DNA of 64,000 nucleotides, from NCBI GenBank assembly GCA_934747255.1, contig CAKVGH010000006.1, forward strand, positions 8,414 to 72,413, read 5' to 3'. This DNA is from an uncultured Clostridia bacterium (GTDB lineage Bacteria > Bacillota > Clostridia > Christensenellales > UBA1242). Below are positions 8,242 through 40,713 of the stretch, piece after piece. The first letter of the stretch is position 1; every line of letters starts with the position of its first letter. The notes beneath the pieces were generated by a model that was not told where the DNA came from, ran no database searches, and was given only the letters and a program-made list of their open reading frames with translations. The translations under genes and the position numbers were made by a program.

Positions 8242-10089
8242 TTAGTAGTTTTCTTTCACTTCGCCATCTTGTTCCATTTGATTAAACTTTTCTCGCCACG
8301 CCTTGTCGTCATAAAATTTTGCTTGCGCAAATGGATTTTTTAGTTCAATGCTATTTTCAAAGACATTGCTAGCATAAGAAATATTTTGGTTTACTATTTT
8401 TTCAACACATCTATATACTTTTGACCATTCTGTTTTGTCGTTTAAGGCTTTGCCAATACTATAAAGTGAGTCCATAATATCTTTTAAGTGAATATCACTA
8501 GAATTAGTTTTCATAATTCTATAGACATTATTTGGATAATCTTTTACATAAGACTTTAATTTGTTATAGTCAAATGTTGTAGCATTTATAACCATATCGT
8601 ATTTGCTAATTTTTTCTAGGTATGACTTGTTTATAAAGCAAACATCTTCGTTAAAGATTTCTTCAAAATTAGATAAAACTCTATAAAGGTCACCTTCACT
8701 AAAATGAGCAAAGTTATCTTGAACTAACAATAAATCAACAAAGTTATCAACACCATAAGCCGAAAGTTTTTCGGTAAATTCTTTATCATTATCTAGACGC
8801 CTGCGTAATGCTACAACAACATTCAAATCAACATTGCTTTCGCCGTTTTTAATTTTGGTTTTCATAAAATCTAAAACTTTGAGCATTACATAGTCTTTTT
8901 CTTTTTCCAAGTTGCTTCTTTCAAGTTCTTTTTGCAAAAAGTCGTTTGCTTCCGTTTTAGAGATAGTGCCTTCAACAGCTTTTTTTGCTAAAAAGTTCGA
9001 CTTTGGCAAAAATCTAATTCCAGCAAGTTTTAATAAATCAAAACAGTCGCTTATGGTTTCGTAGTTATTTACTATTCTATCAAAGTTGTCACCAAGTTTA
9101 GCATTTTGTGTCTTAAAATAAGCATTTTTTATGAGTTCTTTATATTTTTTTGATGCAAACAAACATCTTGTCATATCATCATAAAATAAATTTTTTGCGG
9201 TTTCACCAGAAAAACTAAAAGAATTATTATTTTTTGTTATTAAATTAACATCCTTAAAATAACTTAAATCATTCAAAGGAAGTAAAAAGTATCTTAAAGA
9301 GTTACTAGTGTATTTACTTGAATCCCAAGTAACATCTGCATAATAAAATCCTTCTATTTTATACTTATCGTCTTTAAGGTAAATAACATTGTTACGATGA
9401 TAACCAGTTTTGCCATCTCTATATTTAGTTTCTATGGAATTTTCAAAAGTTTTAAGGTTAGGATTATTTAACTCTGTAATTATTGCATAGATTAGTCTTG
9501 AATAACCCGCACAAACAATTTTGTTAAACTTACCACTCACGACACCAATTAGAGTTCGAGATGCTGACCAATGGTCAGTTTTTTCTTCCTCCTTATAAGA
9601 GTAATGTTTAATCTTTGTGTAAAGATAAAGCATTGATTCTAGTGGCGAAAGATTAAGTTTTTTTATTTCTGTTGCACTTTTTCTAACATAGTTAAATGCT
9701 TTTTTTGATTGTTCAGCCGAAAAATGACGACTCTCATAGACACCACTTTCAATGTCTTTATAACCCATTTTTTCAACATCGGCTTTTAACGAATCTATAT
9801 CTTGATTTTTGTAAATATTTCGTCTATCGTAGTAATATAAATCAACCTTAATGTCCTTTTCGTCAAAGCCTTTACTTTTTGCAAACTCAATTGCTTTTTT
9901 TAAGTTATCTTCTAGTCTATAATCGTAAAGTTCGTATTCTGTTAACAAAATACATAATACAGGCTTTAAGTTCTTATCTCTTTTTTCAATGAAGTCTAAA
10001 AGATTTTCTTCAAATCTGTCAGGAGATAATATTCCCCCAATTCCAACATAATCAATCTCTTTTTCGTTTACAACTTTATTTTCTTCCAT
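8242..10089 (-). CDS. Large cytoplasmic protein with a transglutaminase-like Cys-His-Asp core; function unknown
   Basis: 615 aa with no signal peptide or TM segment. KIVCAGYSRLIYAI ... GYHRNNVIYL ... GFYYADVTWD has the spacing of the transglutaminase-like cysteine protease triad. The C-terminal ~320 aa look helical and have no recognisable motif. Confidence 0.5.
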   Translation of the reverse strand: MEENKVVNEKEIDYVGIGGILSPDRFEENLLDFIEKRDKNLKPVLCILLTEYELYDYRLEDNLKKAIEFAKSKGFDEKDIKVDLYYYDRRNIYKNQDIDSLKADVEKMGYKDIESGVYESRHFSAEQSKKAFNYVRKSATEIKKLNLSPLESMLYLYTKIKHYSYKEEEKTDHWSASRTLIGVVSGKFNKIVCAGYSRLIYAIITELNNPNLKTFENSIETKYRDGKTGYHRNNVIYLKDDKYKIEGFYYADVTWDSSKYTSNSLRYFLLPLNDLSYFKDVNLITKNNNSFSFSGETAKNLFYDDMTRCLFASKKYKELIKNAYFKTQNAKLGDNFDRIVNNYETISDCFDLLKLAGIRFLPKSNFLAKKAVEGTISKTEANDFLQKELERSNLEKEKDYVMLKVLDFMKTKIKNGESNVDLNVVVALRRRLDNDKEFTEKLSAYGVDNFVDLLLVQDNFAHFSEGDLYRVLSNFEEIFNEDVCFINKSYLEKISKYDMVINATTFDYNKLKSYVKDYPNNVYRIMKTNSSDIHLKDIMDSLYSIGKALNDKTEWSKVYRCVEKIVNQNISYASNVFENSIELKNPFAQAKFYDDKAWREKFNQMEQDGEVKENY

Positions 10090-10194: not shown

Positions 10195-10668
10195 TTATTT
10201 TACAGGAATAATCTTGATATAATCAATAGCAAGTCCCGTCTGCTCGGTTACGATAGACACAATTTGTGCCACTTGGCTTGATGTGAGTTCCCCTGCTTTA
10301 ACAACCACTTTAACTCCCGATGTAGCACTGGTTACAATTACATCTTCAAAACCTTTGCTTTTAATTAGCCCTTCGGTAACAAGTTCAGTTTCCATTGCTT
10401 CAATCAAACTTGCTCTTTTGGTTTCCGCTGCTGCTTTTGCTTCGGCACTTGTATCTGTACTTGCTATAATAGCATCGTAATACTTAATTTCTTCACTTCT
10501 AACAGACTCTCTATCGCTTCGATAAGTTGTAAAGAAGTTTGCAGTTGTAACAGTGTTTGTGTTTGTTTCAACAACGCCACGATTTAATGCAATGTTAAGG
10601 TAGCCAGTAACAGCAAGTAACACAGCCATAACAGATAAAATTATTATTTTTTTCTTTTTTGTCAACAT
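10195..10668 (-). CDS. spoIIIAH: Stage III sporulation protein AH
   Basis: 157 aa with an N-terminal TM segment and a C-terminal YscJ/FliF-like domain. It is the last gene of the spoIIIA string. Confidence 0.75.
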   Translation of the reverse strand: MLTKKKKIIILSVMAVLLAVTGYLNIALNRGVVETNTNTVTTANFFTTYRSDRESVRSEEIKYYDAIIASTDTSAEAKAAAETKRASLIEAMETELVTEGLIKSKGFEDVIVTSATSGVKVVVKAGELTSSQVAQIVSIVTEQTGLAIDYIKIIPVK

Positions 10669-10682
10669 AATAAATCTCCTTT

Positions 10683-11270
10683 TTATTTACCTACAAATAC
10701 TTCTATTTTGCTAGAATCTAGTTTAAGCAAAGTTTGTATTGCTGAAATTATATCTAGTTTAACTTTTGTGTCTTTTGCTCCCGAACTAACAACGACTATC
10801 CCACTAATTTCGGGCATTTTTTCACTAATAACTATTGGTTTTTTTTCGCCATCAATTTCAACAAGAATTATCTTGCTTTTTTTTTCCACAGTTTGTCCAC
10901 TTGTTGTTATGGTGTCATCGGTAGCAAATTCTAGTTCCACACTAGATGACACCGAAACCATAACTTCGACATTTCCCGTCCCCTGCATTTGCGACAAAAC
11001 TGATTTTATTCGCTTTTCTAGTGACTCAACATACTTTGAAGTGGAAATATATGTTTGAGATGTTGAATCAGTAGTACCCGTAGTTTGATTAGTTGATGAC
11101 GACTTCAAAAAACCAAAAATGTTATTACCGCAAAAACAAATCAGCAAAAGCACAATGGCAAAGATAGATACAATGATAACTTCAATGTGTTTTATGCTTT
11201 TAAGTTTCTTAACAAAAGATAACTCTGCAAGCGACTTAAACAGTCCCTTTTGTTTTTTTTCATCACTCAT
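10683..11270 (-). CDS. spoIIIAG: Stage III sporulation protein AG
   Basis: 195 aa with a single TM segment and a C-terminal beta-rich ring domain (...GNVEVMVSVSSS...IVVVSSGA...), in the expected operon position. Confidence 0.75.
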   Translation of the reverse strand: MSDEKKQKGLFKSLAELSFVKKLKSIKHIEVIIVSIFAIVLLLICFCGNNIFGFLKSSSTNQTTGTTDSTSQTYISTSKYVESLEKRIKSVLSQMQGTGNVEVMVSVSSSVELEFATDDTITTSGQTVEKKSKIILVEIDGEKKPIVISEKMPEISGIVVVSSGAKDTKVKLDIISAIQTLLKLDSSKIEVFVGK

Positions 11271-11745
11271 TGAATACTATCTGCTCCTTGGAAACATTTA
11301 CGACCTGCTGTACGGCTTGTACAATTTCGGTATACTTATTTATATGCGACATTTGTCCGCTAATTACCATATTTTTTAAGTTTAATGTAACTTTTTTGAT
11401 ATTTAGAACATTATCTTCCAAATTACTCTCAATTTCGCACGACACATTCAAAAAACCCGCTTTTTCGATAGATTTTTCCACATTCGTTTGCAAGACTTTT
11501 ACTATCTTTTTGTTTGTTGCTTGCAAAAAATCTTGGTCAATTTCGATAGACACTTTATCATAAAAAAAGTTGGAGAAATCATAGTTACTGTTTATGATTT
11601 TAGGAATAGGTAAAATAATCGCCATAACAGTAAAAATTCCAAACATTGATTTTATGTATTTGTTCATTTGCCCGTTTGGGACAACAATATCGACCAAAAC
11701 ACCTAACATTACAACACCAATTATCGATAGCAAATATGCGGTCAT
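11263..11745 (-). CDS. spoIIIAF: Stage III sporulation protein AF
   Basis: 160 aa with two N-terminal TM helices, in the expected operon position. Confidence 0.7.
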   Translation of the reverse strand: MTAYLLSIIGVVMLGVLVDIVVPNGQMNKYIKSMFGIFTVMAIILPIPKIINSNYDFSNFFYDKVSIEIDQDFLQATNKKIVKVLQTNVEKSIEKAGFLNVSCEIESNLEDNVLNIKKVTLNLKNMVISGQMSHINKYTEIVQAVQQVVNVSKEQIVFNE

Positions 11746-11891
11746 ATCTTCTCCTTTTTCATTTATTTTTTATAATTGTTTACCACTTTATGTCTACAAA
11801 AAATTCTCATCTATCTTGTAATTTTTTCCAATTGTCATTTAGATATTTTCTTGTTTTTATTATATTTTGAATTGTTCATAAAAGTACCACA

Positions 11892-13088
11892 TTAAAAGAC
11901 ATTGCTTGTACACATAATTAGTCCTATGGTAATTAAATAAGCAAAGCCAGCCACACAAATAGTAGCAATTAGCATTGACAGACATTTTGAAATACCGCTC
12001 AAAAAATCAACTATTCGTTTATCGCAAATTGGTTCTAAAATTCCTGCACTTAATGACAAAACAAGTTTCAAAAGTAATATTTTTAGTATAGGAGAAATTA
12101 TTGTTGAAAAAAGCAAAAAAAGTCCTGCCATACCAACTGCATTTTTAACCAAAACACTGCTTGTTAAAATTAAATTTAATCCATCCGCCAAATAGCCACC
12201 AACAAACGGAATGTAACTTTTCATTGCATATTTTGTTGTTCTAATAGATAGTCCATCATAACTACCCGCCGTTATGCCTTGAATAGTCAAAAACGCCGAA
12301 AACAGTGTGAAAACAAGTCCTATTGTCCATTTGAAAATTGATTGAAAAAGTCCAGAAAATTTGTTTAGTTTTACATTGCTCGATAAATTGCCAACGACCG
12401 TAAAAACAAGGCAAAACACAAAGAGTGGCATTATAAAATTTACAAAAATTGTCATCAGTGAACCAGACAAAATTGCAACTAATGGCTGATATACACTAAC
12501 CGATACTACTGACCCCACCGATGTCAACAAAGTCAACAAAATTGGGAAGCCAATTTCCATTTGCCCTTTAAGACTATTGAGAGTACTATATGTTACCTTA
12601 ACTAATCCTGTAACTGCGTTAAAAACAACCATTATGATTACGGCATAACATACAAAATGGACAATTTCCGCAACCGTTTTATCTTTACTAAAATTTGCTT
12701 GATTTGTAATACTAGACAAAACTCCTAGTGCAATTATCGTGCAAAGTAATGGAATTATAGCCAGTATTTCATTTGATAAAATACTAAAAAAAGCCGATGC
12801 AATACTGGAAAAATTTATGCTTGTTTTACCAGAAATTAAATCTTTAACCTTTTCAAGAAACGAACCATTACTAAAAATAGATTTGTCTTGATTAGTCATA
12901 TTTTTAATAATCTCGTCAAAGCCAGAAAAATCTATATCTTCCAGCGTTTTGTCTACTTCATTTATAATGTCAGTTTCAGCACTTTCAACTGCAAGAACTT
13001 TTGTACTATTTTTAGGAAAAATAGACACACAAAACGAAATTAAAATAATCAGTATCAACCCTATAATTATCTTGTAACTTTTTTTCAT
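11892..13088 (-). CDS. spoIIIAE: Stage III sporulation protein AE
   Basis: 398 aa polytopic membrane protein with a signal-like N-terminus. Size and position match SpoIIIAE. Confidence 0.85.
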   Translation of the reverse strand: MKKSYKIIIGLILIILISFCVSIFPKNSTKVLAVESAETDIINEVDKTLEDIDFSGFDEIIKNMTNQDKSIFSNGSFLEKVKDLISGKTSINFSSIASAFFSILSNEILAIIPLLCTIIALGVLSSITNQANFSKDKTVAEIVHFVCYAVIIMVVFNAVTGLVKVTYSTLNSLKGQMEIGFPILLTLLTSVGSVVSVSVYQPLVAILSGSLMTIFVNFIMPLFVFCLVFTVVGNLSSNVKLNKFSGLFQSIFKWTIGLVFTLFSAFLTIQGITAGSYDGLSIRTTKYAMKSYIPFVGGYLADGLNLILTSSVLVKNAVGMAGLFLLFSTIISPILKILLLKLVLSLSAGILEPICDKRIVDFLSGISKCLSMLIATICVAGFAYLITIGLIMCTSNVF

Positions 13089-13471
13089 TGCATAATACCA
13101 ATAATGACTTCGATAAGATTATTTATCACTGGCATACAAAGAATTAAAATAGTAATTTTTCCCGCAAACATAATCTTGTCCGCTATGGACACATTACCGC
13201 TATCTATACAAATATTTGAACCAAACTCTGTTATGTAACCTATGCCTATAACTTTCAAAACGCATTTGAAAAGCGAACTATTTACCCCAGTTTTATTCAT
13301 TAAAAGTTTTATGCTATCAAAAACATTTGTCAAACTATTAACCAACATAAAAACTATAACAAGACCACCAGCAATAGTAACAAAAATCGCAAGTTCTGGT
13401 TTAACTTGCTTTAATACTACTGTAACTATGACCGTTATAATTCCCACTGCGATAATTTTGAATATTTCCAT
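13085..13471 (-). CDS. spoIIIAD: Stage III sporulation protein AD
   Basis: 128 aa. ...KVIGIGYITEFGSNICIDSGNVSIADKIMFAGKI... closely parallels B. subtilis SpoIIIAD. Confidence 0.85.
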   Translation of the reverse strand: MEIFKIIAVGIITVIVTVVLKQVKPELAIFVTIAGGLVIVFMLVNSLTNVFDSIKLLMNKTGVNSSLFKCVLKVIGIGYITEFGSNICIDSGNVSIADKIMFAGKITILILCMPVINNLIEVIIGIMQ

Positions 13472-13477
13472 AAAACC

Positions 13478-13681
13478 CTACAAAATAAATAATGAAAAAA
13501 GACCCTTTACTGTGCTAAATAAATCACTTATTAAGTTTACTATCATAAGTAGTACAACAATCACTCCCGCAAGAGTTGTAAGCGTTGCAATTTCGTCTTT
13601 ACCCGCATACTTTAACACCTGATTTACAACAGCGGTTAATATTCCAATACCTGCAATCTTAAAAATTATTTCTACTCCCAT
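13478..13681 (-). CDS. spoIIIAC: Stage III sporulation protein AC
   Basis: 67 aa. MGVEIIFKIAGIGILTAVVNQVLKYAGKDE... parallels B. subtilis SpoIIIAC. Confidence 0.85.
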   Translation of the reverse strand: MGVEIIFKIAGIGILTAVVNQVLKYAGKDEIATLTTLAGVIVVLLMIVNLISDLFSTVKGLFSLFIL

Positions 13682-13752
13682 TTTTTACTCCTTTAACAGT
13701 TTGCATAGTACTATTAAACTTTGCATAGTACTCCCGATTTTTCGGGCGAAAA

Positions 13753-14253
13753 TCAAATAAATATAATAAAAATTGCCACAGCAAACAATATTCCTAATTT
13801 AACAGACATACTTCCATATTTTTGATTTTCCTGCTTGGAAAATCCTAAAATCGAAGAAAATTTGCTTTTGAAATCCCCTATTTGAGCAAGTTGGTCAAAC
13901 GAATTCGATGTGCCTAAAATTTCAAAAAAGTCACACAACTGCTCTTTCTCATCGTCTTTTAATATTGCCACCTTATCAAGTTCATTGCGAAAATTATTTC
14001 TAAAATTATCAATGTCTTTTAATGCCTTTTCGTAAGACATCAATACCTTATTAAAATTGCTACCATAACTATCATTTTTTTTATTTAGTAAAGTTTTTAT
14101 ATCTGTTTTCAAAAAACTAATTTCACTTTGCAAGTACCCGCAAAAGTCATATATGTTTTGAAAAAAATATTGCCTTGATTTGTAATAAACAAAAAACTTG
14201 TAAGACAAAAAAATAACAAGCAGACAAAGAAGCAACATCAAAATAATTTTCAT
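13753..14253 (-). CDS. spoIIIAB: Stage III sporulation protein AB
   Basis: 166 aa with N- and C-terminal TM segments flanking a helical cytoplasmic domain. It overlaps the spoIIIAA stop. Confidence 0.75.
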   Translation of the reverse strand: MKIILMLLLCLLVIFLSYKFFVYYKSRQYFFQNIYDFCGYLQSEISFLKTDIKTLLNKKNDSYGSNFNKVLMSYEKALKDIDNFRNNFRNELDKVAILKDDEKEQLCDFFEILGTSNSFDQLAQIGDFKSKFSSILGFSKQENQKYGSMSVKLGILFAVAIFIIFI

Positions 14254-15167
14254 TTCTTTAACTCCATCAACTCAAAATTCTCATCATAAATTCCTTCAAT
14301 TTGACCTTTTTTTGCGTTTCCATGCAAAACTATGTATCTATCAAAAGTTTTGTCTATCAAAAATTGCTCAAATTCTTTCTTTCGCTTTAATTCATTTAGA
14401 TTTTTACCGTGAATAGTACAAAGAAGTTTTACTCCACAAGTAGAAGCGTATTTTAGGGCTTCAAAGTCTTTTTTTGTTCCTATTTCGTCAGTAGCAATAA
14501 CTTGTGGGTTCATTGACCTAATTCCGTTGATAATAGACTCATATTTATTGCCATTTATAATGGTGTCACAAAACTCGCCAATGTTTAATTGATTAACACC
14601 TTTGGTTGTGGCACTGATTTCGTTTCGTTCGTCAACCAAAAGTACATTCAGCGCCTTTTCACTTGCAAGACTTCTAACCAAATCTCTTAAAAGTGTTGTT
14701 TTACCGCTTGATGGTGGCGAAATTATTAGAGTATTAAGAAACTCGTTTTTTTGGAATAGATATTCGATAATATTTTCACTGCAACCTATAATTTGATGCG
14801 GAAATCTAATTGTTAGACTGGAAAAGTTTTTTATAGTTTGCATTTTATTTTCTTCCATTACAACTTGTCCTGTGATGCCTATTCGAATGCCATTATTCAA
14901 TGTGATAAACCCGTTTTTTATGTCTTCGTTTACGGCGTAAATAGAAAAATTCGCACTCTTTGATACAATGTTTTGAATACTCTTTTGACCCAAACTAATA
15001 GCATTTTTACCGCTACTTATTAGTCCTGATTGTCCCAAGTAATAAAACTCACTATCGTAACACACAGTCACCGGTTTTTCGGCTCGAATACGAAGTTCTT
15101 GAAGCCATTTGTAGTCAATCTTTTTTAGTGCATCAACAATTATTTCAGGCAAAATTTCTTCTAACAT
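14250..15167 (-). CDS. spoIIIAA: Stage III sporulation protein AA (secretion-type ATPase)
   Basis: It has the Walker A PPSSGKTTLLRDL. I chose the start at the ATG at 15165-15167 (MLEEILPE) because an AAGGAG RBS lies 6 nt upstream; the track start at 15200 has none. Confidence 0.85.
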   Translation of the reverse strand: MLEEILPEIIVDALKKIDYKWLQELRIRAEKPVTVCYDSEFYYLGQSGLISSGKNAISLGQKSIQNIVSKSANFSIYAVNEDIKNGFITLNNGIRIGITGQVVMEENKMQTIKNFSSLTIRFPHQIIGCSENIIEYLFQKNEFLNTLIISPPSSGKTTLLRDLVRSLASEKALNVLLVDERNEISATTKGVNQLNIGEFCDTIINGNKYESIINGIRSMNPQVIATDEIGTKKDFEALKYASTCGVKLLCTIHGKNLNELKRKKEFEQFLIDKTFDRYIVLHGNAKKGQIEGIYDENFELMELKK

Positions 15168-15391
15168 TTTGACTCCTTTACTACTAATATGAATTATCAA
15201 AATTTAATAGAAGAAAAAAAATGGCTAATTTTGACAAAAAATTATCAAACCGCCATTTATTATTTTTTTAATTATATCACTACAAAAGATTTAAGAAATT
15301 TTTTATAGAAAAAATATTATATTGATGTTGTTAGATTATGAACGCAATCAAAAACTATCAATTTTATGTGTAAATTATTGATTAAAAGCAT

Positions 15392-24483: not shown

Positions 24484-26016
24484 TTACTTCTTATCTTGAT
24501 AATTTTCGATAAGTTTTACAAACACCTTTGCTGTTGCAATTGTATCGTTAACTGCCCTATGTGCGCCAATCAAACTCACACCCAAAAAATCGCAAACAGT
24601 TGACAACTTAAAATGCTTTAATTGTCCCAAATACTTTTGAGCAAGAATCATTGTATCTTGCGTTAGATTATCAATTATATAGCCAAGTGGCTTTGCGTGA
24701 TAAGATATGAATGGCAAGTCAAAACTAATGTTATGAGCAACTAGTGTCGAGCCCTCAATAAACTTGAAAAAATCAGGAAAAACTTGTTTGAAAACTGGTG
24801 CGTCTTTCACCATTTCATCAGTAATATTATTTGTAGCGGTTGCATCTTCTGGAATGTGCATTTCTGGGTTCACAAAAGTTGAAAACAACTCGGTAATTCT
24901 ACCATTTACAACCTTTACCGCACCGATTTCAATAATTTTACAAGTTTGATAATTTAATCCAGTTGTTTCTAGGTCGAACACCACAAAAGTGTTGTTTTTT
25001 AAGTACTCACTTTTTATTTCACTAGATGTGTCCAAAAAGTTAATTTGTTCCATTTGAATATATGGTTCTGGCTTGACGATTTTGTAATGTGAACTTGCTT
25101 TTTTAAGTTGTTTTTTTGGATAGTCAAACTTACAAAGAGCAAGCGCACGAACTCTTAAACTCAAATTACCCCTAAACTCATCAATATCAGCAATAACTAA
25201 AACTTTTTGACCATTTTCGAGATTTTTTAAGTCTTCGCCATTTTTCAAAAAACAAACTGCTTCAAGTTGCATTTCTTGGCTATGTAATGAAAATTTGTAG
25301 TACTTTGATTGTTTTTGTTCGCCGTCAACTTCCTTATTTCTAGCAAACTCGCTGTAATCAAAAAATTCGCCAGCAACTGCAATATTTTTAGTACCACCAA
25401 CCACTTGTTCTGGCAAAATTACGGTGGAATATTCAGGCATTTTGCCAAGGTATGGCTTTACAAATGAAACTTTCATATTTGTATTTTGTTCAAAATCATC
25501 TTCCATAAAATCTTGTCGTCTAAAATCTAAAATGTTGCTATTTTGATTTTGAATTTGCTCATAAGAATAATTGATTGAATTAAAACTGCAACAAGCCAAA
25601 GTGTTTTCCATTTGCAAGGCAAAATCTTCCATTTCCAACTTGCTTGGCAAACTAGAATAGTAATATAGTTTTACATTCAAAGATTTATCAACTACTTCTA
25701 TAATGGTTTTATCAACATCAAAAACTGTGTTATAAAGTTTGTTAGACATTAAAAACTTTTTTACAAGTGTTAAAATATAATCTGTTGTAATGATTTTTTG
25801 CTTAACCTTTACGCAAGTTTTACATTTTTTTTCAATATATTCATTAACTATATTATTTAATAATTCCAGTTTTTCGCCCACATAACTATCGCTAATAGGA
25901 GAACTAAAAGTCACTTGCAAAAGGTTGTCATTTGAAAGAAATTTTGCACCAAAAAACTGCAAATCACTAAATTCGCCTGAGTTTTTTGTATAGATATAAT
26001 CTAAAATTTTTTCCAA
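24484..26016 (-). CDS. PolC-like N-terminal domain + OB fold + DEDDh 3'-5' exonuclease, with no PHP or polymerase domains
   Basis: 510 aa. Exo motifs: FVVFDLETTGLN (ExoI), LVAHNISFDLPFI (ExoII), HRAVNDTIATAKVF (ExoIII, DEDDh). These are strongly PolC-exo-like. They are preceded by an OB-fold-like block (NIAVAGEFFDY...LVIADIDEFRGNLSLRV). It lies right after rseP, where polC lies in Bacillus. Confidence 0.7.
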   Translation of the reverse strand: MEKILDYIYTKNSGEFSDLQFFGAKFLSNDNLLQVTFSSPISDSYVGEKLELLNNIVNEYIEKKCKTCVKVKQKIITTDYILTLVKKFLMSNKLYNTVFDVDKTIIEVVDKSLNVKLYYYSSLPSKLEMEDFALQMENTLACCSFNSINYSYEQIQNQNSNILDFRRQDFMEDDFEQNTNMKVSFVKPYLGKMPEYSTVILPEQVVGGTKNIAVAGEFFDYSEFARNKEVDGEQKQSKYYKFSLHSQEMQLEAVCFLKNGEDLKNLENGQKVLVIADIDEFRGNLSLRVRALALCKFDYPKKQLKKASSHYKIVKPEPYIQMEQINFLDTSSEIKSEYLKNNTFVVFDLETTGLNYQTCKIIEIGAVKVVNGRITELFSTFVNPEMHIPEDATATNNITDEMVKDAPVFKQVFPDFFKFIEGSTLVAHNISFDLPFISYHAKPLGYIIDNLTQDTMILAQKYLGQLKHFKLSTVCDFLGVSLIGAHRAVNDTIATAKVFVKLIENYQDKK

Positions 26017-26040: not shown

Positions 26041-27360
26041 TCAAAAGCCAAATATCTTTGCTATTATTTGATAAATATCGGCGGCAAACACAAGCCCAAG
26101 TAAGACAAAAAAGCCTATGTTGTGAATCAAATTTTCCGTTTTTTGACTAAATAATGGCTTGCCTTTGATCCACTCAATAGTGGTCAAAAGCATTTTACTG
26201 CCGTCAAGTGCTGGAATTGGCAACCAGTTGAACACGGCAAGGTTAGCAGCAATTAAAGGTAAAAGCACCAAGAAATAAGATAAACTTTGACTTGATAAAC
26301 TTGCAATTGTGCCTATTGTATAAATTGGTCCGCCAACTTGTGTTAGTCCTTTACCCACAATTAGTTGACCTAATGCTTGCAAAACTTTCCACGAAAAACC
26401 AAATGTATATGGAACACATCTAACAAGTGATTCGCCAAAACTAAATCTATATGCCGTACTGCTAACACCTATTGCTTTTGCATAGTTGCCGTCAGCGTCC
26501 TTAAAGCCTGTATCGTAATAATTAAGAACCAAATCTTTAATCTCACCGTTTCGCTTTACTGTTAAAGTTACAGTAGATTCACTTGAACCATCTGTGATTA
26601 AAGAATTAAAAGTATTGTCTTTAATAAAATCTATGGCTACACCATTGATTTTGTAAATTACATCATTTTTTTGTAGTTTATCATCGGTCGTACCAGCATT
26701 TGAATGTTTTGTAACTTTAACCATAGGATAAAATGTTTCTTCATTATCATTATCTGTCTTTCGTTTAACTGTTAAAGTATATTCATCATTTATACTTTCT
26801 TTTTGAGATAAAACAGATGCCAAATAATCTTTTGTAACACCTATTGAATTGTTTGAATTTTTAATATCATCGCCGTTAACCTGCATAATGATATCTTTAT
26901 CTGTAAATTCAAATGGAACGGTTGTATAACCACCTACTGAATTAACTACATACACACTATCAATTCTAACAACATCATTAACAGAATATACTTGTGGAAC
27001 ATCATAACCAACACTCACAAGCATAATAAAACTAAAAATAATTGCTGATATAAAATTGAAAAAAGCACCATTAAAAAGAACAATTAGTCTTTTCCAAGGC
27101 TTTTGTTTAGTAAAAGCACCACTATTATCGCTATTATCTTCTTCGCCTTCAAAGGCACAGTAGCCACCCAGTGGAACTAATCTAATAGAAAAAATTTCTC
27201 CACTTTTGCACTTTTTAGAAAATAGGCTTGGACCAAAACCAATCGAAAACTCGTTGATTTTGAAGCCAAGCATTTTTCCAGCAACATAGTGACCAAATTC
27301 GTGAATTGTCACCATCATCAATAAAACTAAAAGTGCAAGTAAAATATAAAGTACTATCAA
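26041..27360 (-). CDS. rseP: RIP metalloprotease RseP/RasP (M50 site-2 protease)
   Basis: 439 aa with the HEFGHY zinc motif in TM1, PDZ-like middle region(s), and a C-terminal NxxPxPxLDG-type motif (NWLPIPALDG). Confidence 0.9.
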   Translation of the reverse strand: MIVLYILLALLVLLMMVTIHEFGHYVAGKMLGFKINEFSIGFGPSLFSKKCKSGEIFSIRLVPLGGYCAFEGEEDNSDNSGAFTKQKPWKRLIVLFNGAFFNFISAIIFSFIMLVSVGYDVPQVYSVNDVVRIDSVYVVNSVGGYTTVPFEFTDKDIIMQVNGDDIKNSNNSIGVTKDYLASVLSQKESINDEYTLTVKRKTDNDNEETFYPMVKVTKHSNAGTTDDKLQKNDVIYKINGVAIDFIKDNTFNSLITDGSSESTVTLTVKRNGEIKDLVLNYYDTGFKDADGNYAKAIGVSSTAYRFSFGESLVRCVPYTFGFSWKVLQALGQLIVGKGLTQVGGPIYTIGTIASLSSQSLSYFLVLLPLIAANLAVFNWLPIPALDGSKMLLTTIEWIKGKPLFSQKTENLIHNIGFFVLLGLVFAADIYQIIAKIFGF

Positions 27361-27406
27361 AATAAACTCCTTGATAAAATTATATTCAACTTTTCAAAAA
27401 ATATAA

Positions 27407-28333
27407 TTAAAATATTAAAGCAAAAACAATTAAACTAAATAGTGCGTTAAAAGCTAGTCCATCGCACCTATCCATAAATCCACCGTGACCTGGGAAAATT
27501 GTACTAAAATCTTTTGTTCTTGCTGTTCGTTTTAGCCACGAAGCGAATATATCGCCTGCTTGTGAAACTACTGACGCAATTAAACTATAACCTACCATTA
27601 GCCAAATTGATAATTTTGCATCTGCAAAAATAGTTGCAAAACTGCCAACATTTAAGAATACAAAGTACAACACAATACAGCCAATTACTGAGCCAATTAA
27701 CCCACCTATTGCACCAGAAATAGTCTTGTTTGGACTAATATATGGGCAAAGTTTTTTACCCTTAATAGTTGAGCCAACAAAGTATGCACAAACATCTGTT
27801 AACATTGTTGAAATAAACACAACTAATAGTACAAAAAAGCCAATCATACTATCACTTGATGCTGTTAAGCCAAAATCTGTCAAGTGGTTAATGTAAAATA
27901 GTGAACTTAAAATCAAACTTGGGTATGCAAAAACCATCATAGATAGTAATGTTTTTTTAATAACATAATCACTTGGTTTTTCGTCCGCTAGCAACTCCTG
28001 TTTCTTTGCTTTTTTATCAAGCAATGTCCACAAAAATGCACCCATTGAAAATAACACAAAAAGTGCTAATTCTATAAGTAAAACATAAACAAATGATAGT
28101 TTGAAATATACTCCCAAAAGTATTGTTAAAAATACTGTTACTGGAAAAATTGTTCCAAGTGTCATATTGTTGTATCTACCACTACGATTGAACACTTTTG
28201 ATACTTCTCCTGCACCGCAAACCATAATAATTGCAATCATTATATCAAAGATATAAGGACTAACAAATCTTAATCCAAAAAAACCAGCACAGATAAGTCC
28301 AATAATACTACCCGTAATTACTCTCGTTTTCAT
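27407..28333 (-). CDS. cdsA: Phosphatidate cytidylyltransferase
   Basis: I prefer the start MKTRVITGS, which has an AAGGAG RBS. It is polytopic, with the C-terminal signature ...SWLKRTARTKDFSTIFPGHGGFMDRCD. Confidence 0.9.
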   Translation of the reverse strand: MKTRVITGSIIGLICAGFFGLRFVSPYIFDIMIAIIMVCGAGEVSKVFNRSGRYNNMTLGTIFPVTVFLTILLGVYFKLSFVYVLLIELALFVLFSMGAFLWTLLDKKAKKQELLADEKPSDYVIKKTLLSMMVFAYPSLILSSLFYINHLTDFGLTASSDSMIGFFVLLVVFISTMLTDVCAYFVGSTIKGKKLCPYISPNKTISGAIGGLIGSVIGCIVLYFVFLNVGSFATIFADAKLSIWLMVGYSLIASVVSQAGDIFASWLKRTARTKDFSTIFPGHGGFMDRCDGLAFNALFSLIVFALIF

Positions 28334-28343
28334 TTTTTCTCCT

Positions 28344-29072
28344 TTACTCTTTGATTGCTCCAAAGCGTCTGTTTCTTGACGCAAAATCAATCAAAACTTT
28401 ATGTAATTCATTTTTATCAAAACTAGGCCAATATGTTTTTACAAAGCATAGTTCTGCATAAGCCATTTGATAAAGCATAAAATTGCTTATACGCTGTTCG
28501 CCACTTGTTCTAACAACCAAATCAATTTCTTTCAAATCTTTTGAATACAATTCTTGTTCAAAATCTTTGTAAGTAACTTCTGTTTTTCCTTGTTTTAACA
28601 AGTTATTTACAGCTCGCAAAATATCAAGTCTTCCGCCATAATTTATGCACATATTTACAATCATATTATTGCAAGACTGTGTTTCATTAACTGCGTTTTC
28701 TATCGCATTTTGCAGGTCTTGTGGCAATTTTGTTATATCACCACTAACTATAAATTTTATACCTTTTTGTTTGTATGGAAGCAGGTCTTCATTTATATAA
28801 TCTCGTAGTAATTGAAACAAAGTATCAATTTCGTCTTTTGGTCTATTCCAATTTTCCGTTGAAAAGCAAAAGAATGATACTTGCTTTATACCCAAATCAT
28901 AACAATTTTGAATAGTATCTTTTACCGCAACAACACCTTGCTTATGTCCCATACTTCGTGGAAGTCCACGCTGTTTTGCCCACCTGCCGTTACCATCTAT
29001 GATAAATGCAATGTGATATGGCAATTTGTTTTTATCAATTTCGTAATTCTTCTTTTTTCTAAATAAGCACAT
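28344..29072 (-). CDS. uppS: Undecaprenyl diphosphate synthase
   Basis: 242 aa. HIAFIIDGNGRWA ... RTSGEQRISNFMLYQ are the cis-prenyltransferase motifs. Confidence 0.95.
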   Translation of the reverse strand: MCLFRKKKNYEIDKNKLPYHIAFIIDGNGRWAKQRGLPRSMGHKQGVVAVKDTIQNCYDLGIKQVSFFCFSTENWNRPKDEIDTLFQLLRDYINEDLLPYKQKGIKFIVSGDITKLPQDLQNAIENAVNETQSCNNMIVNMCINYGGRLDILRAVNNLLKQGKTEVTYKDFEQELYSKDLKEIDLVVRTSGEQRISNFMLYQMAYAELCFVKTYWPSFDKNELHKVLIDFASRNRRFGAIKE

Positions 29073-30010: not shown

Positions 30011-30658
30011 TTATTTTTTCATTTGGCTCATAACTTCTTCTGCAAAGTTATCGTGTCTTTTTTCAAGACCTTCGCCCATTTCGTAACGAACAAATCTTCT
30101 AACAGTGATTTTTTCGCCGATTGACAAAACTGCTTCGTTAATAATTTCTGTAATTGTCTTTGATGGGTCTTTAACAAATGGTTGTTCCATCAAGCAAATT
30201 TCGCTGTAATACTTGTTGATTTTGCCTTCAACAATTCTATCAACAACTGCTGCTGGTTTGCCTTCGTTAAGAACTTCTGCACGCATAATTTCTCTTTCTT
30301 TTTCAACATCGCGCATATCTGCTTCTTCTCTTCTAACACACTTTGGATTTTGTGCTGCGATTTGCATAGCAATGTCTTTTACAAGTGCTTTGAAAGCGTC
30401 AGAACGAGCAACAAAGTCTGTTTCACAGTTAACTTCAACTAGAACGCCGATTTTTCCGCCCATATGAATGTAACTATCAACTACGCCTTCTGCTGCAATT
30501 CTATCTGCTTTTTTAGCTGCTTTTGCAATACCTTTTTCTCTTAAATAATCAATGGCTTTATCCATATTGCCATCGCATTCTTTAAGTGCGTTTTTGCAGT
30601 CCATCATTCCTGCACCTGTTTTTTCTCTTAATTTAACAATATCTTGTGCTGTAAACAT
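30011..30658 (-). CDS. tsf: Translation elongation factor Ts (short form)
   Basis: 215 aa. ...VKLREKTGAGMMDCKNALKECDGNMDKAIDYLREKG is the UBA-like N-terminal domain. Confidence 0.95.
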   Translation of the reverse strand: MFTAQDIVKLREKTGAGMMDCKNALKECDGNMDKAIDYLREKGIAKAAKKADRIAAEGVVDSYIHMGGKIGVLVEVNCETDFVARSDAFKALVKDIAMQIAAQNPKCVRREEADMRDVEKEREIMRAEVLNEGKPAAVVDRIVEGKINKYYSEICLMEQPFVKDPSKTITEIINEAVLSIGEKITVRRFVRYEMGEGLEKRHDNFAEEVMSQMKK

Positions 30659-32541: not shown

Positions 32542-32648
32542 ACATTTGCTCCACTTTGATTTTAGCATAATTTACCATTTTTACAAACGATTTTGGGGTT
32601 AGATTTTGCAATAAAAGAAAAAAAGCAAGAATTAAAACTTGCTTTTTT

Positions 32649-32786
32649 CTAAATATTTTCTATTTTTTCCTTAATAACTTCTTTGCCTTGTTCTATTGCT
32701 TGTTGCATTTTTTTGCTACTATGAACAGTAATTGCACCAACAATAAAGCCAAGAGCCATACCTATAAGCAATTTATCGTCTAACAT
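32649..32786 (-). CDS. Small membrane-anchored protein (45 aa, YtxH-like)
   Basis: It is not in the ORF track because it is shorter than 60 aa. Sequence: MLDDKLLIGMALGFIVGAITVHSSKKMQQAIEQGKEVIKEKIENI. A strong GGGAGGG RBS lies 5 nt upstream, and a terminator hairpin follows immediately (aaagcaag...cttgcttt, about 32622-32646). Confidence 0.55.
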   Translation of the reverse strand: MLDDKLLIGMALGFIVGAITVHSSKKMQQAIEQGKEVIKEKIENI

Positions 32787-32867: not shown

Positions 32868-33302
32868 TTAATCTTTCTTTTTTAACTCATCAGGAATTGG
32901 AAACCCAGCAAGTTTTAATTCTTTAATTTTTGCCTTACGCTCTTTTTCTTCGTAATCTTCAACGGCAGCAATAATAGCCTTTACAACCACTTCTGCACCA
33001 AAAGTCTTAATATCTGGGTATTCGGTAACCTTTTCTAAAATTTGAGATGGAGTGATAGTTTTTGCCATTGCAAGTGTTTTGTTATTACATAGTTTTGCAC
33101 CAAAACTAGAAAGTATGATTGTTGAAATTGAGCCAAATGCCTTAAATTTTGCTTCCAAAATAGTGTCATCTTCCACTTTTAAGTAGATTTTAACAACATC
33201 GCCTGTTTTTTCATCTTCTACTGTACCGCTTGCATTAGAAGCACGAAGTAAACCATAGTTATCAATACTATTGAACAAATACATTGTTTTATAAGAATAC
33301 AT
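32868..33302 (-). CDS. IscU/NifU-like scaffold homolog lacking all three cluster-ligand cysteines
   Basis: 144 aa. It is collinear with clostridial NifU/IscU (MYS.K.M..F....N.G......G.V......GD..KIY.KVE...I..AKFK.FG). However, NPxCGD is DEKTGD, FGCGxAIA is FGSISTII, and HCS is TFG. The only Cys sits in an unrelated position (AKLCNNK). Confidence 0.7.
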   Translation of the reverse strand: MYSYKTMYLFNSIDNYGLLRASNASGTVEDEKTGDVVKIYLKVEDDTILEAKFKAFGSISTIILSSFGAKLCNNKTLAMAKTITPSQILEKVTEYPDIKTFGAEVVVKAIIAAVEDYEEKERKAKIKELKLAGFPIPDELKKKD

Positions 33303-34486
33303 TACTTATCCTCCTTTGCAACAACACTAATATGTAGTGGCGAAATTTCTCTCATTTTTTTTACAGCAACTACTAATTTTTCAACAACATAATCAAGGTC
33401 GTCTTTTGTTAAATTTTTCAAGATAGAAAAGTTTACCACTGTTTTAAGAAGTTCCTTTTGAAGTCCCATTGCGGTTAAGATATGAGAATGTTCTAGTTCT
33501 TCACTTAAAGCAATGTTTAGTGGGTGAACAGCAATTCCTTCCATATCAAGTAGTGATGCAAGTGCTTCACTATCGACAAATTCAAAACTCAATGCAACAA
33601 CATTTGAAAGTCTTTGAAAAGAATGTCCTACAAGATGAACATCTTCTATGTTTTCCATAACCTTTTTAGTAAAATATTCTCTTAAATGACGAAGTTTTTG
33701 TGCATTTAATGTAACATCGTGGCAAGCCATATCAACTGCTTTTCCAAATCCTACAATATCAGCAACACTTTGACTACCGCCACGCTTTGAATAATCCTGA
33801 TTTGATGGGTAAATCAAACTATCAATGTTGATACCATTTTTTAGGTATAACGCACCTACGCCACTTGGACCATAAATTTTGTTTGAAGACATACTCATGG
33901 CATCAATGTTTAGGTCTTTAACATTTATGTTAATGTTACCAATAGCGTGACAAGCATCACAGTGGAAAATTATATCTCTTTCCTTAACTGTTCTTGCAAT
34001 AGCATTTAAGTTTTGAATAGTTCCAACTTCCTTGTTAGCAACAGAAATACTAACCAAGATTGTATCTTTTTTGATTTCGTGCATAAGGTGGCTTAACTTA
34101 ATAAAACCAAAACTATCAACTGGAATATAAGAAACTCTAAAACCTTCTTTTTCAAGTTGTGCACAAGCACGAAGCAATGACTCACTTTCAATCTTTGATA
34201 CAATGATATGATTACCTTTTTCCTTGTTGGCCCTAGCAAGTCCTAGTATTGCCCAACAATTTGCTTCTGTACCACTTGATGTAAAATATATTTCACTTGA
34301 TTTTGAACCTATACCCTTTGCAACTTGTCTTTTTGCTCTATCAATTAAATCTTTTGACTGTTTAGCGAATGAATGAAAACCAGTACTATTTGCATAAGTT
34401 TCTGCTAAAACAGGTGTCATTTCTTGCAAAACTTCGTTATTTATATATGTGGAAGATATTGCATCCATATAAATTTTTCTTTCCAT
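33302..34486 (-). CDS. Class V aminotransferase / cysteine desulfurase (NifS/IscS) homolog lacking the catalytic cysteine
   Basis: 394 aa. It shows the NifS-like blocks SSGTEAN, HCDACHAIG, SSNKIYGPSGVGALYL (PLP lysine kept, His to Asn), and SHILTAMG. The active-site loop SSGSAC is replaced by HPLNIA. There is no Cys anywhere in the last ~130 residues. Confidence 0.75.
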   Translation of the reverse strand: MERKIYMDAISSTYINNEVLQEMTPVLAETYANSTGFHSFAKQSKDLIDRAKRQVAKGIGSKSSEIYFTSSGTEANCWAILGLARANKEKGNHIIVSKIESESLLRACAQLEKEGFRVSYIPVDSFGFIKLSHLMHEIKKDTILVSISVANKEVGTIQNLNAIARTVKERDIIFHCDACHAIGNININVKDLNIDAMSMSSNKIYGPSGVGALYLKNGINIDSLIYPSNQDYSKRGGSQSVADIVGFGKAVDMACHDVTLNAQKLRHLREYFTKKVMENIEDVHLVGHSFQRLSNVVALSFEFVDSEALASLLDMEGIAVHPLNIALSEELEHSHILTAMGLQKELLKTVVNFSILKNLTKDDLDYVVEKLVVAVKKMREISPLHISVVAKEDK

Positions 34487-34517
34487 TAAAAAACTCCTTG
34501 TTTTTTTACTTGTCTAA

Positions 34518-34546
34518 ATAATAACACTTTGGCAAATGATTGTCAA
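34518..34546 (-). promoter_or_regulatory. Promoter of the nifS-like/nifU-like operon
   Basis: Minus strand: TTGACA (34546-34541), a 17-nt spacer, then TATTAT (34523-34518). Confidence 0.55.
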
Positions 34547-34589: not shown

Positions 34590-34622
34590 TAAAAAAAGGG
34601 AGAAGGACAATTTCCTTCTCCA
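34590..34622 (-). terminator. Intrinsic terminator after trxA
   Basis: A 9-bp stem ggagaagga/tccttctcc (34599-34621), followed by a minus-strand T7 run. Confidence 0.75.
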
Positions 34623-34738: not shown

Positions 34739-35047
34739 CTACTTTATCATATTCAAAATATCTTGTTTTGATTTTAAGCCAATAATTCTTTTTGACTCTT
34801 CGCCATCTACAAAAAGTAGCAAAGTTGGCACGCTCATAATACCATAACTTCTTGCCAAATCAAAGTTTTCATCAACATCGACTTTGCCAATTATAATATC
34901 ATCGCCAATTTCGTTTCTAATTTCTTCAAGAATTGGCGAAAGCATTTTGCAAGGGCCACACCAAGTAGCAAAAAAGTCAACCAAAACTTTCTTTTTTGAC
35001 TGCAAACTCTCTTTTAGAGAATCTTCATTAAAATGTAAAATTTCCAT
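34739..35047 (-). CDS. trxA: Thioredoxin
   Basis: 102 aa with the WCGPC active site. Confidence 0.9.
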   Translation of the reverse strand: MEILHFNEDSLKESLQSKKKVLVDFFATWCGPCKMLSPILEEIRNEIGDDIIIGKVDVDENFDLARSYGIMSVPTLLLFVDGEESKRIIGLKSKQDILNMIK

Positions 35048-35744
35048 AACTATAACTCCTTTTTTTTATCAAATTATTGACAACATACGCCGATATTACA
35101 CACGCACTTGACGCAGGATAATAAACCACACTGCCAATAGTCGTAGTATCTTTATTTGCCTTTGCGGGCTGTTCATCTGTGCATACAACCATAGTTTTTG
35201 TGACGCCTAATTTTTTAAGGTCGTGTCTTAAAACTCTTGCAAGCCTATCATATTTTGTATCAAACAAATCACAAACCTTAAACGAAGGAATACCACATTT
35301 ATTGCCCGTTCCCATACTAGAAATAATATTTATATTATTTTTATTGCAATAAGCGATAAGTGAAACTTTGCTTTTAACCATATCAATACAATCAACAACA
35401 AAGTCATAACTATCAAGTTCAAAATCTTCCAAATTTTCAGGCAAAAGTTTTTGATTAAATGCTTTAACTACGCAATGCGGGTTAATGTTTTTTATTCTTT
35501 CCTGCATCACTTGAACCTTTTGTTTTCCAATGGTATCAACTGTGGCGATAATCTGCCTATTAAGATTACTTTCGCTAACAGTGTCAAAATCAACTATTGT
35601 TACACTTCCAACGCCTGTTCTAACAAGCATTTCACAAACATAGCCACCGACACCACCAATACCAAAGATAATAACTTTTGAGTTTTTTAATGATTGAATA
35701 GCACTTGACCCTAAAACAATTTCTGTTCGTTCAGTCATTCCCAT
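35028..35744 (-). CDS. tcdA: tRNA threonylcarbamoyladenosine dehydratase (ThiF/E1-like, TcdA)
   Basis: 238 aa. KVIIFGIGGVGGYVCEMLVRTGVGSVTIVDFDTVSESNLNRQ is the E1-like Rossmann motif. The size is typical of TcdA/YrvM. Confidence 0.8.
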   Translation of the reverse strand: MGMTERTEIVLGSSAIQSLKNSKVIIFGIGGVGGYVCEMLVRTGVGSVTIVDFDTVSESNLNRQIIATVDTIGKQKVQVMQERIKNINPHCVVKAFNQKLLPENLEDFELDSYDFVVDCIDMVKSKVSLIAYCNKNNINIISSMGTGNKCGIPSFKVCDLFDTKYDRLARVLRHDLKKLGVTKTMVVCTDEQPAKANKDTTTIGSVVYYPASSACVISAYVVNNLIKKRSYSYGNFTF

Positions 35745-40334: not shown

Positions 40335-40372
40335 AAACAAAAAATGTTATAGCCAAAACTATAACATTTTTT
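40335..40372 (-). terminator. Intrinsic terminator abutting the rnpB 3' end
   Basis: A 12-bp stem aaaatgttatag/ctataacatttt (40341-40370), followed by a minus-strand T-run. Confidence 0.7.
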
Positions 40373-40713
40373 ATGAGTTAGTCTATAAGCCGAGTTCTGT
40401 ATTAGACGGTCATCTATCTAGACAATATGTTTCCATAATGTTCAAGCGGTGTATATGGCTTGGCGAACAACCGATTAACGCCATTTATACCTTGCATCAG
40501 GTGGGGTTTGCAATGCCCTGCTTGTCACCAAGCAAGCGGTGGTCTCTTACACACGCCTTTTCAACCTTGCCATTGATTAAATCAATTCGGCGGTATGCTT
40601 TCTGTTGTACTTTCCTTAAAGTCACCTTCACTAGCAGTTAACTAGCACCCTGTTCTGTGATGCTCGGACTTTCCTCGTGAGATAAATCTCCCGCGACCAT
40701 CTGGCTAACTCAT
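40373..40713 (-). ncRNA. rnpB: RNase P RNA (bacterial type B-like)
   Basis: The minus strand reads ATGAGTTAGCCAG...GAGGAAAGTCCGAGCATCACAGAACAGGGTGC...GTAAGAGACCACC...ACAGAACTCGGCTTATAGACTAACTCAT. It has both universally conserved P4 strands (GAGGAAAGTCC and ACAGAAnnCGGCTTA). The 5' end ATGAGTTAG pairs with the 3' end CTAACTCAT to form P1. Confidence 0.9.

Follow-up and report, generated by a model that had tools for sequence, protein, structure and literature searches.

A NifS–IscU gene pair without its catalytic and cluster-ligand residues is kept under purifying selection in an uncultured Clostridia lineage

We describe a pair of adjacent minus-strand genes, nifS' (33302–34486; 394 amino acids, aa) and iscU' (32868–33302; 144 aa), in a 64,000-nucleotide stretch of DNA from an uncultured Clostridia bacterium (GenBank contig CAKVGH010000006.1, positions 8,414 to 72,413; the whole of this stretch is called the window). 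The products have the folds of a NifS/IscS cysteine desulfurase and of an IscU iron–sulfur (Fe–S) scaffold—assignments drawn from Pfam, NCBIfam, alignments, and AlphaFold models—and in both of them the residues that define the chemistry have been replaced. Loss of catalytic residues with retention of purifying selection, measured here by ratios of nonsynonymous to synonymous substitution (dN/dS), is the mark of a pseudoenzyme, and as judged from sequence both genes bear it. We think it rather probable that NifS' and IscU' form a non-catalytic complex of pseudoenzymes, kept to act as a structural element, an adaptor, or a regulator.

Catalytic and ligand residues are lost from two conserved folds

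NifS' belongs to the Pfam family Aminotran_5 (PF00266, 5e-61) and IscU' to NifU_N (PF01592, 2.7e-20). The top NCBIfam model for NifS' is TIGR03402 (NifS), where it scores 391.4 against a curated cut-off of 530.75, and that for IscU' is TIGR03419 (NifU_clost), with 75.5 against 187.9; scores with the IscS model TIGR02006 (317.7, cut-off 643.2) and, for IscU', with TIGR01999 (53.8, cut-off 192.4) likewise fall short. We located the key columns by HMMER alignments to solved structures and by a MAFFT alignment with Escherichia coli IscS, and give them in E. coli numbering. In NifS', the His that stacks on the cofactor pyridoxal phosphate (PLP) is Ser (His104, IEHH to IESE), and the PLP pocket carries three further changes, Asn155 to Lys, Gln183 to His, and His205 to Asn. 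The mobile loop reads LNIA for SGSAC, replacing the persulfide-forming Cys328 with Ala, and Arg354, which holds the substrate carboxylate, is Asn (VVNFS as against IRFS). What is retained is the Schiff-base Lys206 (SSNKIYGP, aligned with SGHKIYGP), Asp180 (HCDACH, aligned with HVDATQ), Ser203, and Thr76, and Thr243 is Ser in the window and its sister species. With the loop Cys and the substrate Arg absent and the PLP pocket dismantled, NifS' is predicted to be incapable of making a persulfide. Two Cys, Cys179 and Cys182, lie between two His in the HCDACH motif around Asp180, a motif found only in the window species and its sister, the remaining members of the clade having HCDATY.

The cluster ligands of IscU' are similarly gone: Cys37 is Thr, Cys63 is Ser, His105 is Phe, and Cys106 is Gly, with Asp39 retained. 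The only Cys in the protein, C72, is polymorphic (C72S in P0147). Because all of the Cys and His ligands are missing, IscU' is predicted to be unable to hold an Fe–S cluster. It also carries a long C-terminal helix rich in Lys and Glu.

Most of these features had been read from the letters alone in an earlier note on this DNA, which identified a NifS-like and a NifU-like gene by manual alignment, and the profile alignments bear that reading out, with non-catalytic residues standing at the catalytic and ligand columns of both proteins. The substitutions that it listed—IESE for IEHH, Asn for the His before a retained PLP Lys, a loop without Cys, and three replaced IscU ligand cysteines—all reappear, and its estimate that the last ~130 residues of NifS' are free of Cys was slightly short, as the final Cys is at about residue 254 and some 140 residues follow it. 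The same note raised sequencing error as an objection. An identical 394-aa NifS' occurs on at least eight independent contigs from different samples, and variants within the species differ at one to five residues and contain no stops, which rules out errors of sequencing or assembly. Recoding of a selenocysteine in nifS' can also be dismissed, since the open reading frame (ORF) contains no in-frame stop.

Predicted structures show both folds as retained. The AlphaFold model of NifS' has a mean predicted local distance difference test score (pLDDT) of 87.8, with low confidence confined to residues 228–233 and 326–331, the former active-site loops, and to the C-terminal 386–394; it superposes on NFS1, IscS, and Archaeoglobus fulgidus IscS with template modelling (TM) scores of 0.90–0.95 (0.94 for NFS1/IscS). 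The model of IscU' (pLDDT 92.1) comprises an IscU core and the long C-terminal helix (102–132), and matches IscU structures at TM 0.72–0.74.

Both genes are under purifying selection, with the active site released

We estimated dN/dS by the Nei–Gojobori method (NG86) between the window and a sister species (L094). For NifS', over its C-terminal 232 codons, the ratio was 0.062 (amino acid identity 88%, dS 1.21), and for IscU' 0.071 (86%, dS 1.29). These values equal those of the neighbouring genes for RuvX (0.065; 89% identity, dS 1.04) and a DUF1292 protein (0.061; 94%, dS 0.72), and a 45-aa ORF downstream of iscU' gave 0.034 (98%, dS 0.55). Beyond this species pair, at greater divergence, dS approaches saturation, which leaves dN and amino acid identity as the comparable measures; there, NifS' is 60–64% identical among relatives, like ThiF, CdsA, and RseP.

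The distribution of the remaining constraint along NifS' is informative. Among 96 active relatives, 124 columns are conserved at 95% or more, and the degenerate clade preserves 70 of these. The other 54, now released, belong largely to the PLP/substrate pocket and the Cys loop, including Asn35, Gly75, His104, Asn155, Glu156, Gln183, His205, Lys206, and much of the 232–243 loop. Mean pairwise identity over active-site columns is 0.31 in the degenerate clade as compared with 0.85 in active relatives, whereas over all other NifS columns it is 0.67 and 0.65, respectively.

An active ortholog occupies the same position, and degenerate pairs form a clade

One related locus, L092, shares the synteny of the window (hslVU-hisS-thiF-trx, then nifS-iscU and a small ORF, then ruvX-DUF1292-rpsB-tsf) and encodes a canonical NifS with a three-Cys IscU. 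Its NifS (cluster P0002) is the closest intact one to NifS', at 64% identity; the IscU encoded there retains His105 along with the three Cys and carries a matching Lys/Glu-rich C-terminal tail. The degenerate pair is the in-place ortholog of a canonical clostridial NifS–IscU operon. Because the canonical three-Cys IscU also has the tail, the tail is ancestral, and not a gain of the degenerate protein as the earlier note had supposed. That note also remarked on the absence of iscR and mnmA as neighbours, which is correct; it is, however, a property of the lineage, as the canonical ortholog lacks them too.

Among the 120 best NifS matches, 19 clusters are clearly degenerate; 17 of them make up the clade of the window and two (P0066 and P0120) a second group, while five more (P0014, P0016, P0020, P0024, and P0026) are altered at Gln183 alone. 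In a neighbour-joining tree, the window NifS' and 16 other degenerate clusters form one clade that is sister to the intact P0002. Every member of this clade has replaced all four of His104, Asn155, Gln183, and His205. The other catalytic positions vary: some sublineages retain Lys206 where others have Gln or Asn, and Cys328 persists in three clusters (P0003, P0019, and P0022), with Ala, Ser, Asn, or Thr at that position in the rest. This is the pattern that would be expected if the PLP pocket was lost first and the remaining catalytic residues then drifted, without arriving at a new shared constellation. The degenerate ORFs are nonetheless full-length (384–395 aa) in about 20 clusters that are just ~60% identical.

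A matching gradient runs through the partner IscU' proteins: the one at locus L008 retains Cys63 and His105, and those at L005 and L006 have lost the Cys from every canonical ligand position. In a neighbouring group (P0014 and relatives; L093), a NifS that is intact apart from Gln183 adjoins an IscU lacking two Cys. The synteny recurs at L096 around another degenerate pair, where Lys206 is Val, the Cys loop has a four-residue deletion, and IscU' has no Cys. The tree suggests an independent origin for this second group (P0066, P0120, and L096), which we do not claim, since the synteny is identical and the branches are long.

Conservation is compatible with a retained NifS'–IscU' interface

In the crystal structure of the E. 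coli complex, IscU touches IscS through Tyr3, Tyr11, Gly38/Val40/Lys42, Lys59–Gly64, and Lys103; IscU without its first 12 residues no longer binds, and the IscS side of the interface consists of helix 309–316, Glu347, and the C-terminal helix 379–391 (PMC2854127). The degenerate IscU' proteins are invariant at Y2, K5, F10, N15, G17, A51-K52-F53-K54, and G57 (numbering of IscU'), and the window protein has K99 at the position of Lys103. On the other side, the C-terminal helix of the degenerate NifS' proteins keeps an LRExSP motif, with Leu380, Arg381, Ser384, and Pro385 conserved and position 382 now a conserved Glu, and Glu311 is retained in 10 of 13 representatives. The NifS' contact segments vary in blocks specific to subclades. 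Together these data are compatible with, though not proof of, an interface that has been retained and is co-evolving.

The pair is predicted to be expressed as a unit with a 45-aa ORF

On the minus strand of the window, where GC content is low (~32%), the gene order is trmFO, hslV, hslU, hisS, a thiF-like gene, and trx, then nifS', iscU', and the 45-aa ORF, and then ruvX, DUF1292, rpsB, tsf, frr, uppS, cdsA, and rseP. An intrinsic terminator after trx (34599–34621, minus strand), made up of a 9-pair stem, five of its pairs GC, and a T run, splits the thiF-trx unit from that of nifS'. Downstream of it lies a predicted sigma-70-type promoter, TTGACA-17-(TG)TATTAT (34518–34546, minus strand), which the earlier note had singled out and which proves to be the top site of the region, agreeing at 11 of 12 positions; promoter-like sites as a class are not in excess here (11, as against 10.5 in shuffled controls), and the site stands as a prediction. 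A Shine–Dalgarno sequence, AAGGAG (34494–34499, minus strand), can be read directly 8 nt upstream of the nifS' ATG at 34486. NifS' ends in ...AAGGAGGATAAGTAATG, and at 33302 the TAA stop shares one base with the ATG of iscU' (TAATG), the overlap that the earlier note had described; the Shine–Dalgarno sequence for iscU' falls within the final codons of nifS', so the two genes appear translationally coupled. A spacer of 82 nt leads from iscU' to the 45-aa ORF (32649–32786, minus strand), which has its own ribosome-binding site (RBS), and a strong intrinsic terminator with a 12-pair stem and a T run (32618–32649, minus strand) ends the unit. From these signals we infer that nifS', iscU', and the 45-aa ORF are expressed as a unit from their own promoter.

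The 45-aa ORF (MLDDKLLIGMALGFIVGAITVHSS...), with one hydrophobic helix followed by an amphipathic tail, is conserved in relatives, at 75–84% identity in L005, L006, L008, and L092, and received no family assignment. It is probably the third gene of the nifS'-iscU' transcription unit. Homologues also directly follow canonical three-Cys iscU genes at L041 (about 10413–10535), L064 (about 10563–10676), and L082 (about 6590–6718); these three came from a contig scan with the degenerate IscU' alignment in which the matches listed were all canonical IscU loci, the scan pattern, [IV][VLT][DE]AKFK[AIT][FC], being one that canonical IscU fits too. Clostridial nifS-iscU operons may thus have this ORF as a third gene that has gone unrecognised.

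Upstream, the ThiF-family gene (35028–35744, minus strand) has TcdA as its best NCBIfam match, at 144 bits against a cut-off of 304, and overlaps by 20 nt a bona fide thioredoxin gene (34739–35047, minus strand). The pairing of thiF and trx is conserved in L005, L006, L092, and L096.

A non-catalytic complex and its alternatives

The account that we consider rather probable begins with a two-gene clostridial NifS–IscU assembly operon, a minimal system of the "MIS type", both genes of which would have turned into pseudoenzymes in one uncultured, low-GC, spore-forming lineage of Clostridia. Since the chemistry has been lost while both proteins were kept folded under strong purifying selection, translationally coupled and by prediction co-transcribed, the pair would act by binding rather than by chemistry. 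The conserved interface positions are compatible with the two proteins still associating; a NifS'2–IscU'2-type complex would have been retained for a role that the ancestral active complex already held, with cluster synthesis presumably supplied by another Fe–S system. Several observations weigh against this account. The window NifS' still has Lys206, Asp180, Ser203, and Thr76, and residual PLP binding is possible. The strong dN/dS values come from one species pair, and that for NifS' from its C-terminal part only. At deeper divergence, no gene of the neighbourhood evolves faster than iscU' (35–46% identity; dN 0.48–0.63, as compared with 0.09–0.13 for HslU), and its constraint has therefore been weaker, or has shifted, over time. 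Finally, the IscU-contacting segments of NifS are somewhat less conserved in the degenerate clade (0.53) than in active relatives (0.67). A broader proposition, that the clostridial NifS–IscU complex has a second, chemistry-independent function, possibly exerted with the 45-aa membrane protein or with the products of the TcdA-like and thioredoxin genes, and of enough weight to hold both proteins under strong selection once their chemistry was gone, we put forward tentatively, as a possibility that we doubt more than we believe.

The earlier note had argued against simple decay and for a repurposed pair, either a pseudoenzyme complex or a PLP enzyme with new chemistry, and of these suggestions the retained pseudoenzyme pair is favoured by selection and conservation. 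Neutral decay would make the pair a relic that is being lost after another Fe–S system took over, with its ORFs not yet broken; variation of active-site residues between sublineages is what one would expect once the constraint of chemistry is lifted, and the divergence of IscU', the highest in the neighbourhood, points the same way. On the contrary, dN/dS ratios of 0.06–0.07 at dS of about 1.2 are those of housekeeping neighbours, ORFs remain full-length across about 20 diverged clusters, conservation away from the active site matches that of active enzymes, the same protein recurs on at least eight contigs with stop-free variants, and coupling, RBS, promoter, and terminator are all intact. 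We regard decay as largely refuted and give it hardly any credence. New chemistry on a non-cysteine substrate, with IscU' as a specificity or activator subunit, has in its favour the strong purifying selection and the residues common to the window and its sister species (Lys206, Asp180, Ser203, Thr76, the Thr243 to Ser change, and HCDACH). Such an enzyme would have to work without the stacking His104, the O3' ligand Gln183, the phosphate ligand His205, and Asn155, and with Asn in place of the carboxylate-holding Arg354. Moreover, the pocket substitutions form no new shared set, and sister members have Gln, Asn, or Val in place of Lys206, so a trait selected across the clade cannot need the Schiff base; we judge this part of the earlier suggestion to be unlikely for the clade, with a small chance left for the window's own sublineage.

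Two further alternatives assign the pair a role in metal or sulfur handling or in tRNA modification. It might bind a metal or a cluster through non-canonical ligands—HCDACH in NifS' and Asp, Ser, or Thr in IscU'—or pass on sulfide rather than persulfide, as has been proposed for the archaeal Lys-less IscS; A. fulgidus IscS, without the PLP lysine, still forms a cluster-holding complex with IscU (PMC13066941), and the two Cys between two His in the window NifS' are suggestive. However, the A. fulgidus cluster is held by three IscU Cys and the IscS loop Cys (PMC13066941), all four of which are absent here, HCDACH does not extend past the window species and its sister, and the single Cys of IscU' is polymorphic, which together make this reading very improbable. 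The pair could instead be an accessory of the TcdA-like ThiF enzyme, acting in synthesis of cyclic N6-threonylcarbamoyladenosine (ct6A) in tRNA together with thioredoxin. E. coli TcdA needs CsdA–CsdE in vivo although its reaction uses no sulfur, a dependence called enigmatic (PMC4405576), and thiF-trx lies directly upstream in the window, L005, L006, L092, and L096, with TcdA as the best match of the ThiF protein. We nevertheless find this quite unlikely. That match is well under the family cut-off, a terminator and a promoter place thiF-trx in a separate transcription unit, L008 and L093 lack the adjacency, which is also seen beside the active ortholog at L092 and so may be plain synteny, and actual transfer of sulfur is believed to underlie the E. 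coli link.

Comparison with known systems

Close in kind is the clostridial NifS–NifU pair (TIGR03402 with TIGR03419), the MisS/MisU or "MIS" minimal Fe–S system described by Garcia et al. (summarised in PMC13066941). The window pair shares its folds, its coupled two-gene layout, and the chromosomal position of the canonical L092 pair, and differs in that the chemistry-defining residues are all replaced in both partners and that its family scores lie far under the cut-offs. In the MisS/MisU literature as summarised in that source, doubly degenerate pairs are not mentioned, and in the literature we found nothing specific on a desulfurase that lacks its Cys or is a pseudoenzyme, nor on an IscU lacking cysteines.

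The nearest documented precedent is the IscS–IscU pair of A. fulgidus (PDB 4EB5 and 4HVK), which is also among the closest structural matches of NifS' and IscU'. There, too, desulfurase activity has been lost naturally and the protein has been kept and pairs with IscU, as the window pair would. The residues lost follow the opposite pattern, however: A. fulgidus IscS lacks the PLP Lys and has the loop Cys, and its IscU has three Cys, so that the complex still holds a [2Fe-2S] cluster, whereas the window pair keeps the Lys and has lost the Cys loop, the PLP pocket, and all IscU ligands. In Mycoplasma, SufS–SufU is likewise retained in reduced, low-GC genomes after its role as an Fe–S scaffold became dispensable (PMC13066941), but these proteins, with their catalytic Cys and Zn ligands in place, remain capable of sulfur transfer, which the window pair is predicted to be unable to perform. 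E. coli CsdA–CsdE–TcdA (PMC4405576) resembles the locus in that a desulfurase and its acceptor support a non-sulfur reaction of the ThiF family and a TcdA-like gene lies nearby; it differs in that CsdA is a class II enzyme and CsdE is SufE-like, both are active, and all three genes form one cluster, where here there is adjacency only.

Ligand-poor IscU-like proteins are more widespread. A profile of four degenerate IscU' proteins, used in an exhaustive search of 1.84 billion representatives, recovered 2863 proteins at E ≤ 1e-3. Among the best 150 of these (50%-identity representatives), 51 keep none of the ligand Cys, 36 keep one, 22 keep two, and 41 keep all three; among those with two Cys, some are plainly fragments with frameshifts. 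Other Cys-poor IscU-like proteins, at L093 and L095, share with IscU' the fold and the loss of ligands, but their partner NifS is intact at visible positions apart from Gln183 at L093, whereas in the window both partners appear dead. The NifS coupled to the L095 gene is visible in its C-terminal part, where both the Cys loop and Arg354 are present. By this comparison, the doubly dead NifS–IscU pair would be the extreme, or end state, of a series of ligand-poor IscU systems.

The L095 protein (560–1270) also belongs to a distinct family of IscU-like proteins of 226–360 aa (P0169–P0178, P0181, P0187, P0196, and others) in which only the first ligand Cys is kept. These have a long low-complexity extension and a conserved C-terminus, ...KAMFDAMFE(E/D) (KAMFDAMFED in L095).

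Other features of the window

The window contains a spoIIIAA–AH operon (about 10195–15200, minus strand), indicating a spore-forming lineage, and a ribonuclease P RNA (40370–40712, minus strand) of class A, not class B. Together these place the organism in the Clostridia and not in the Bacilli or Mollicutes, despite a Bacillus-like gene order; the nearest named relatives of its HslU are from a "Clostridiales bacterium" (85%) and a "Clostridia bacterium" (79%). A 615-aa ORF with no Pfam match (8242–10089, minus strand) directly follows spoIIIAH.

A full-length OLE (ornate large extremophilic) RNA lies at 3680–4289 (minus strand; 373.6 bits, E 3e-106) in the context nusB-xseA-xseB-proS-OLE-...-argR. 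The 263-aa ORF beside it (2895–3686, minus strand) has no Pfam match and could be an OLE-associated protein.

Around uppS-cdsA-rseP (26041–29072, minus strand), we noted the absence of dxr and ispG, which in Firmicutes are expected near cdsA/rseP; dxs and ispA, in turn, are not beside the OLE RNA. This pattern may hint that the Fe–S-dependent methylerythritol phosphate pathway is missing. After rseP, the usual position of polC, is a gene for a 510-aa protein (24484–26016, minus strand; of equal length in L006, L008, and L092) with a C-terminal DEDD exonuclease most like the exonuclease domain of PolC, and without the polymerase part. Elongation factor Ts (30011–30658, minus strand) is unusually short, at 215 aa, a length conserved in all relatives.

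Implications

Annotation pipelines would name these two genes "cysteine desulfurase" and "Fe–S scaffold", and metabolic reconstructions would then credit these gut and rumen Clostridia with an Fe–S or sulfur-mobilising system that they lack. That both partners are dead and yet under selection of housekeeping strength argues that the complex does more than handle sulfur and build clusters. To look for that further role, the clade provides a natural series, from fully active pairs through those with only IscU degenerate and those in which both are degenerate with remnants of Lys or Cys, to fully dead ones. If there is such a second function, the dead pair would isolate it, as a moonlighting function, in pure form, and the many Cys-poor IscU-like proteins of metagenomes would be further cases of it.

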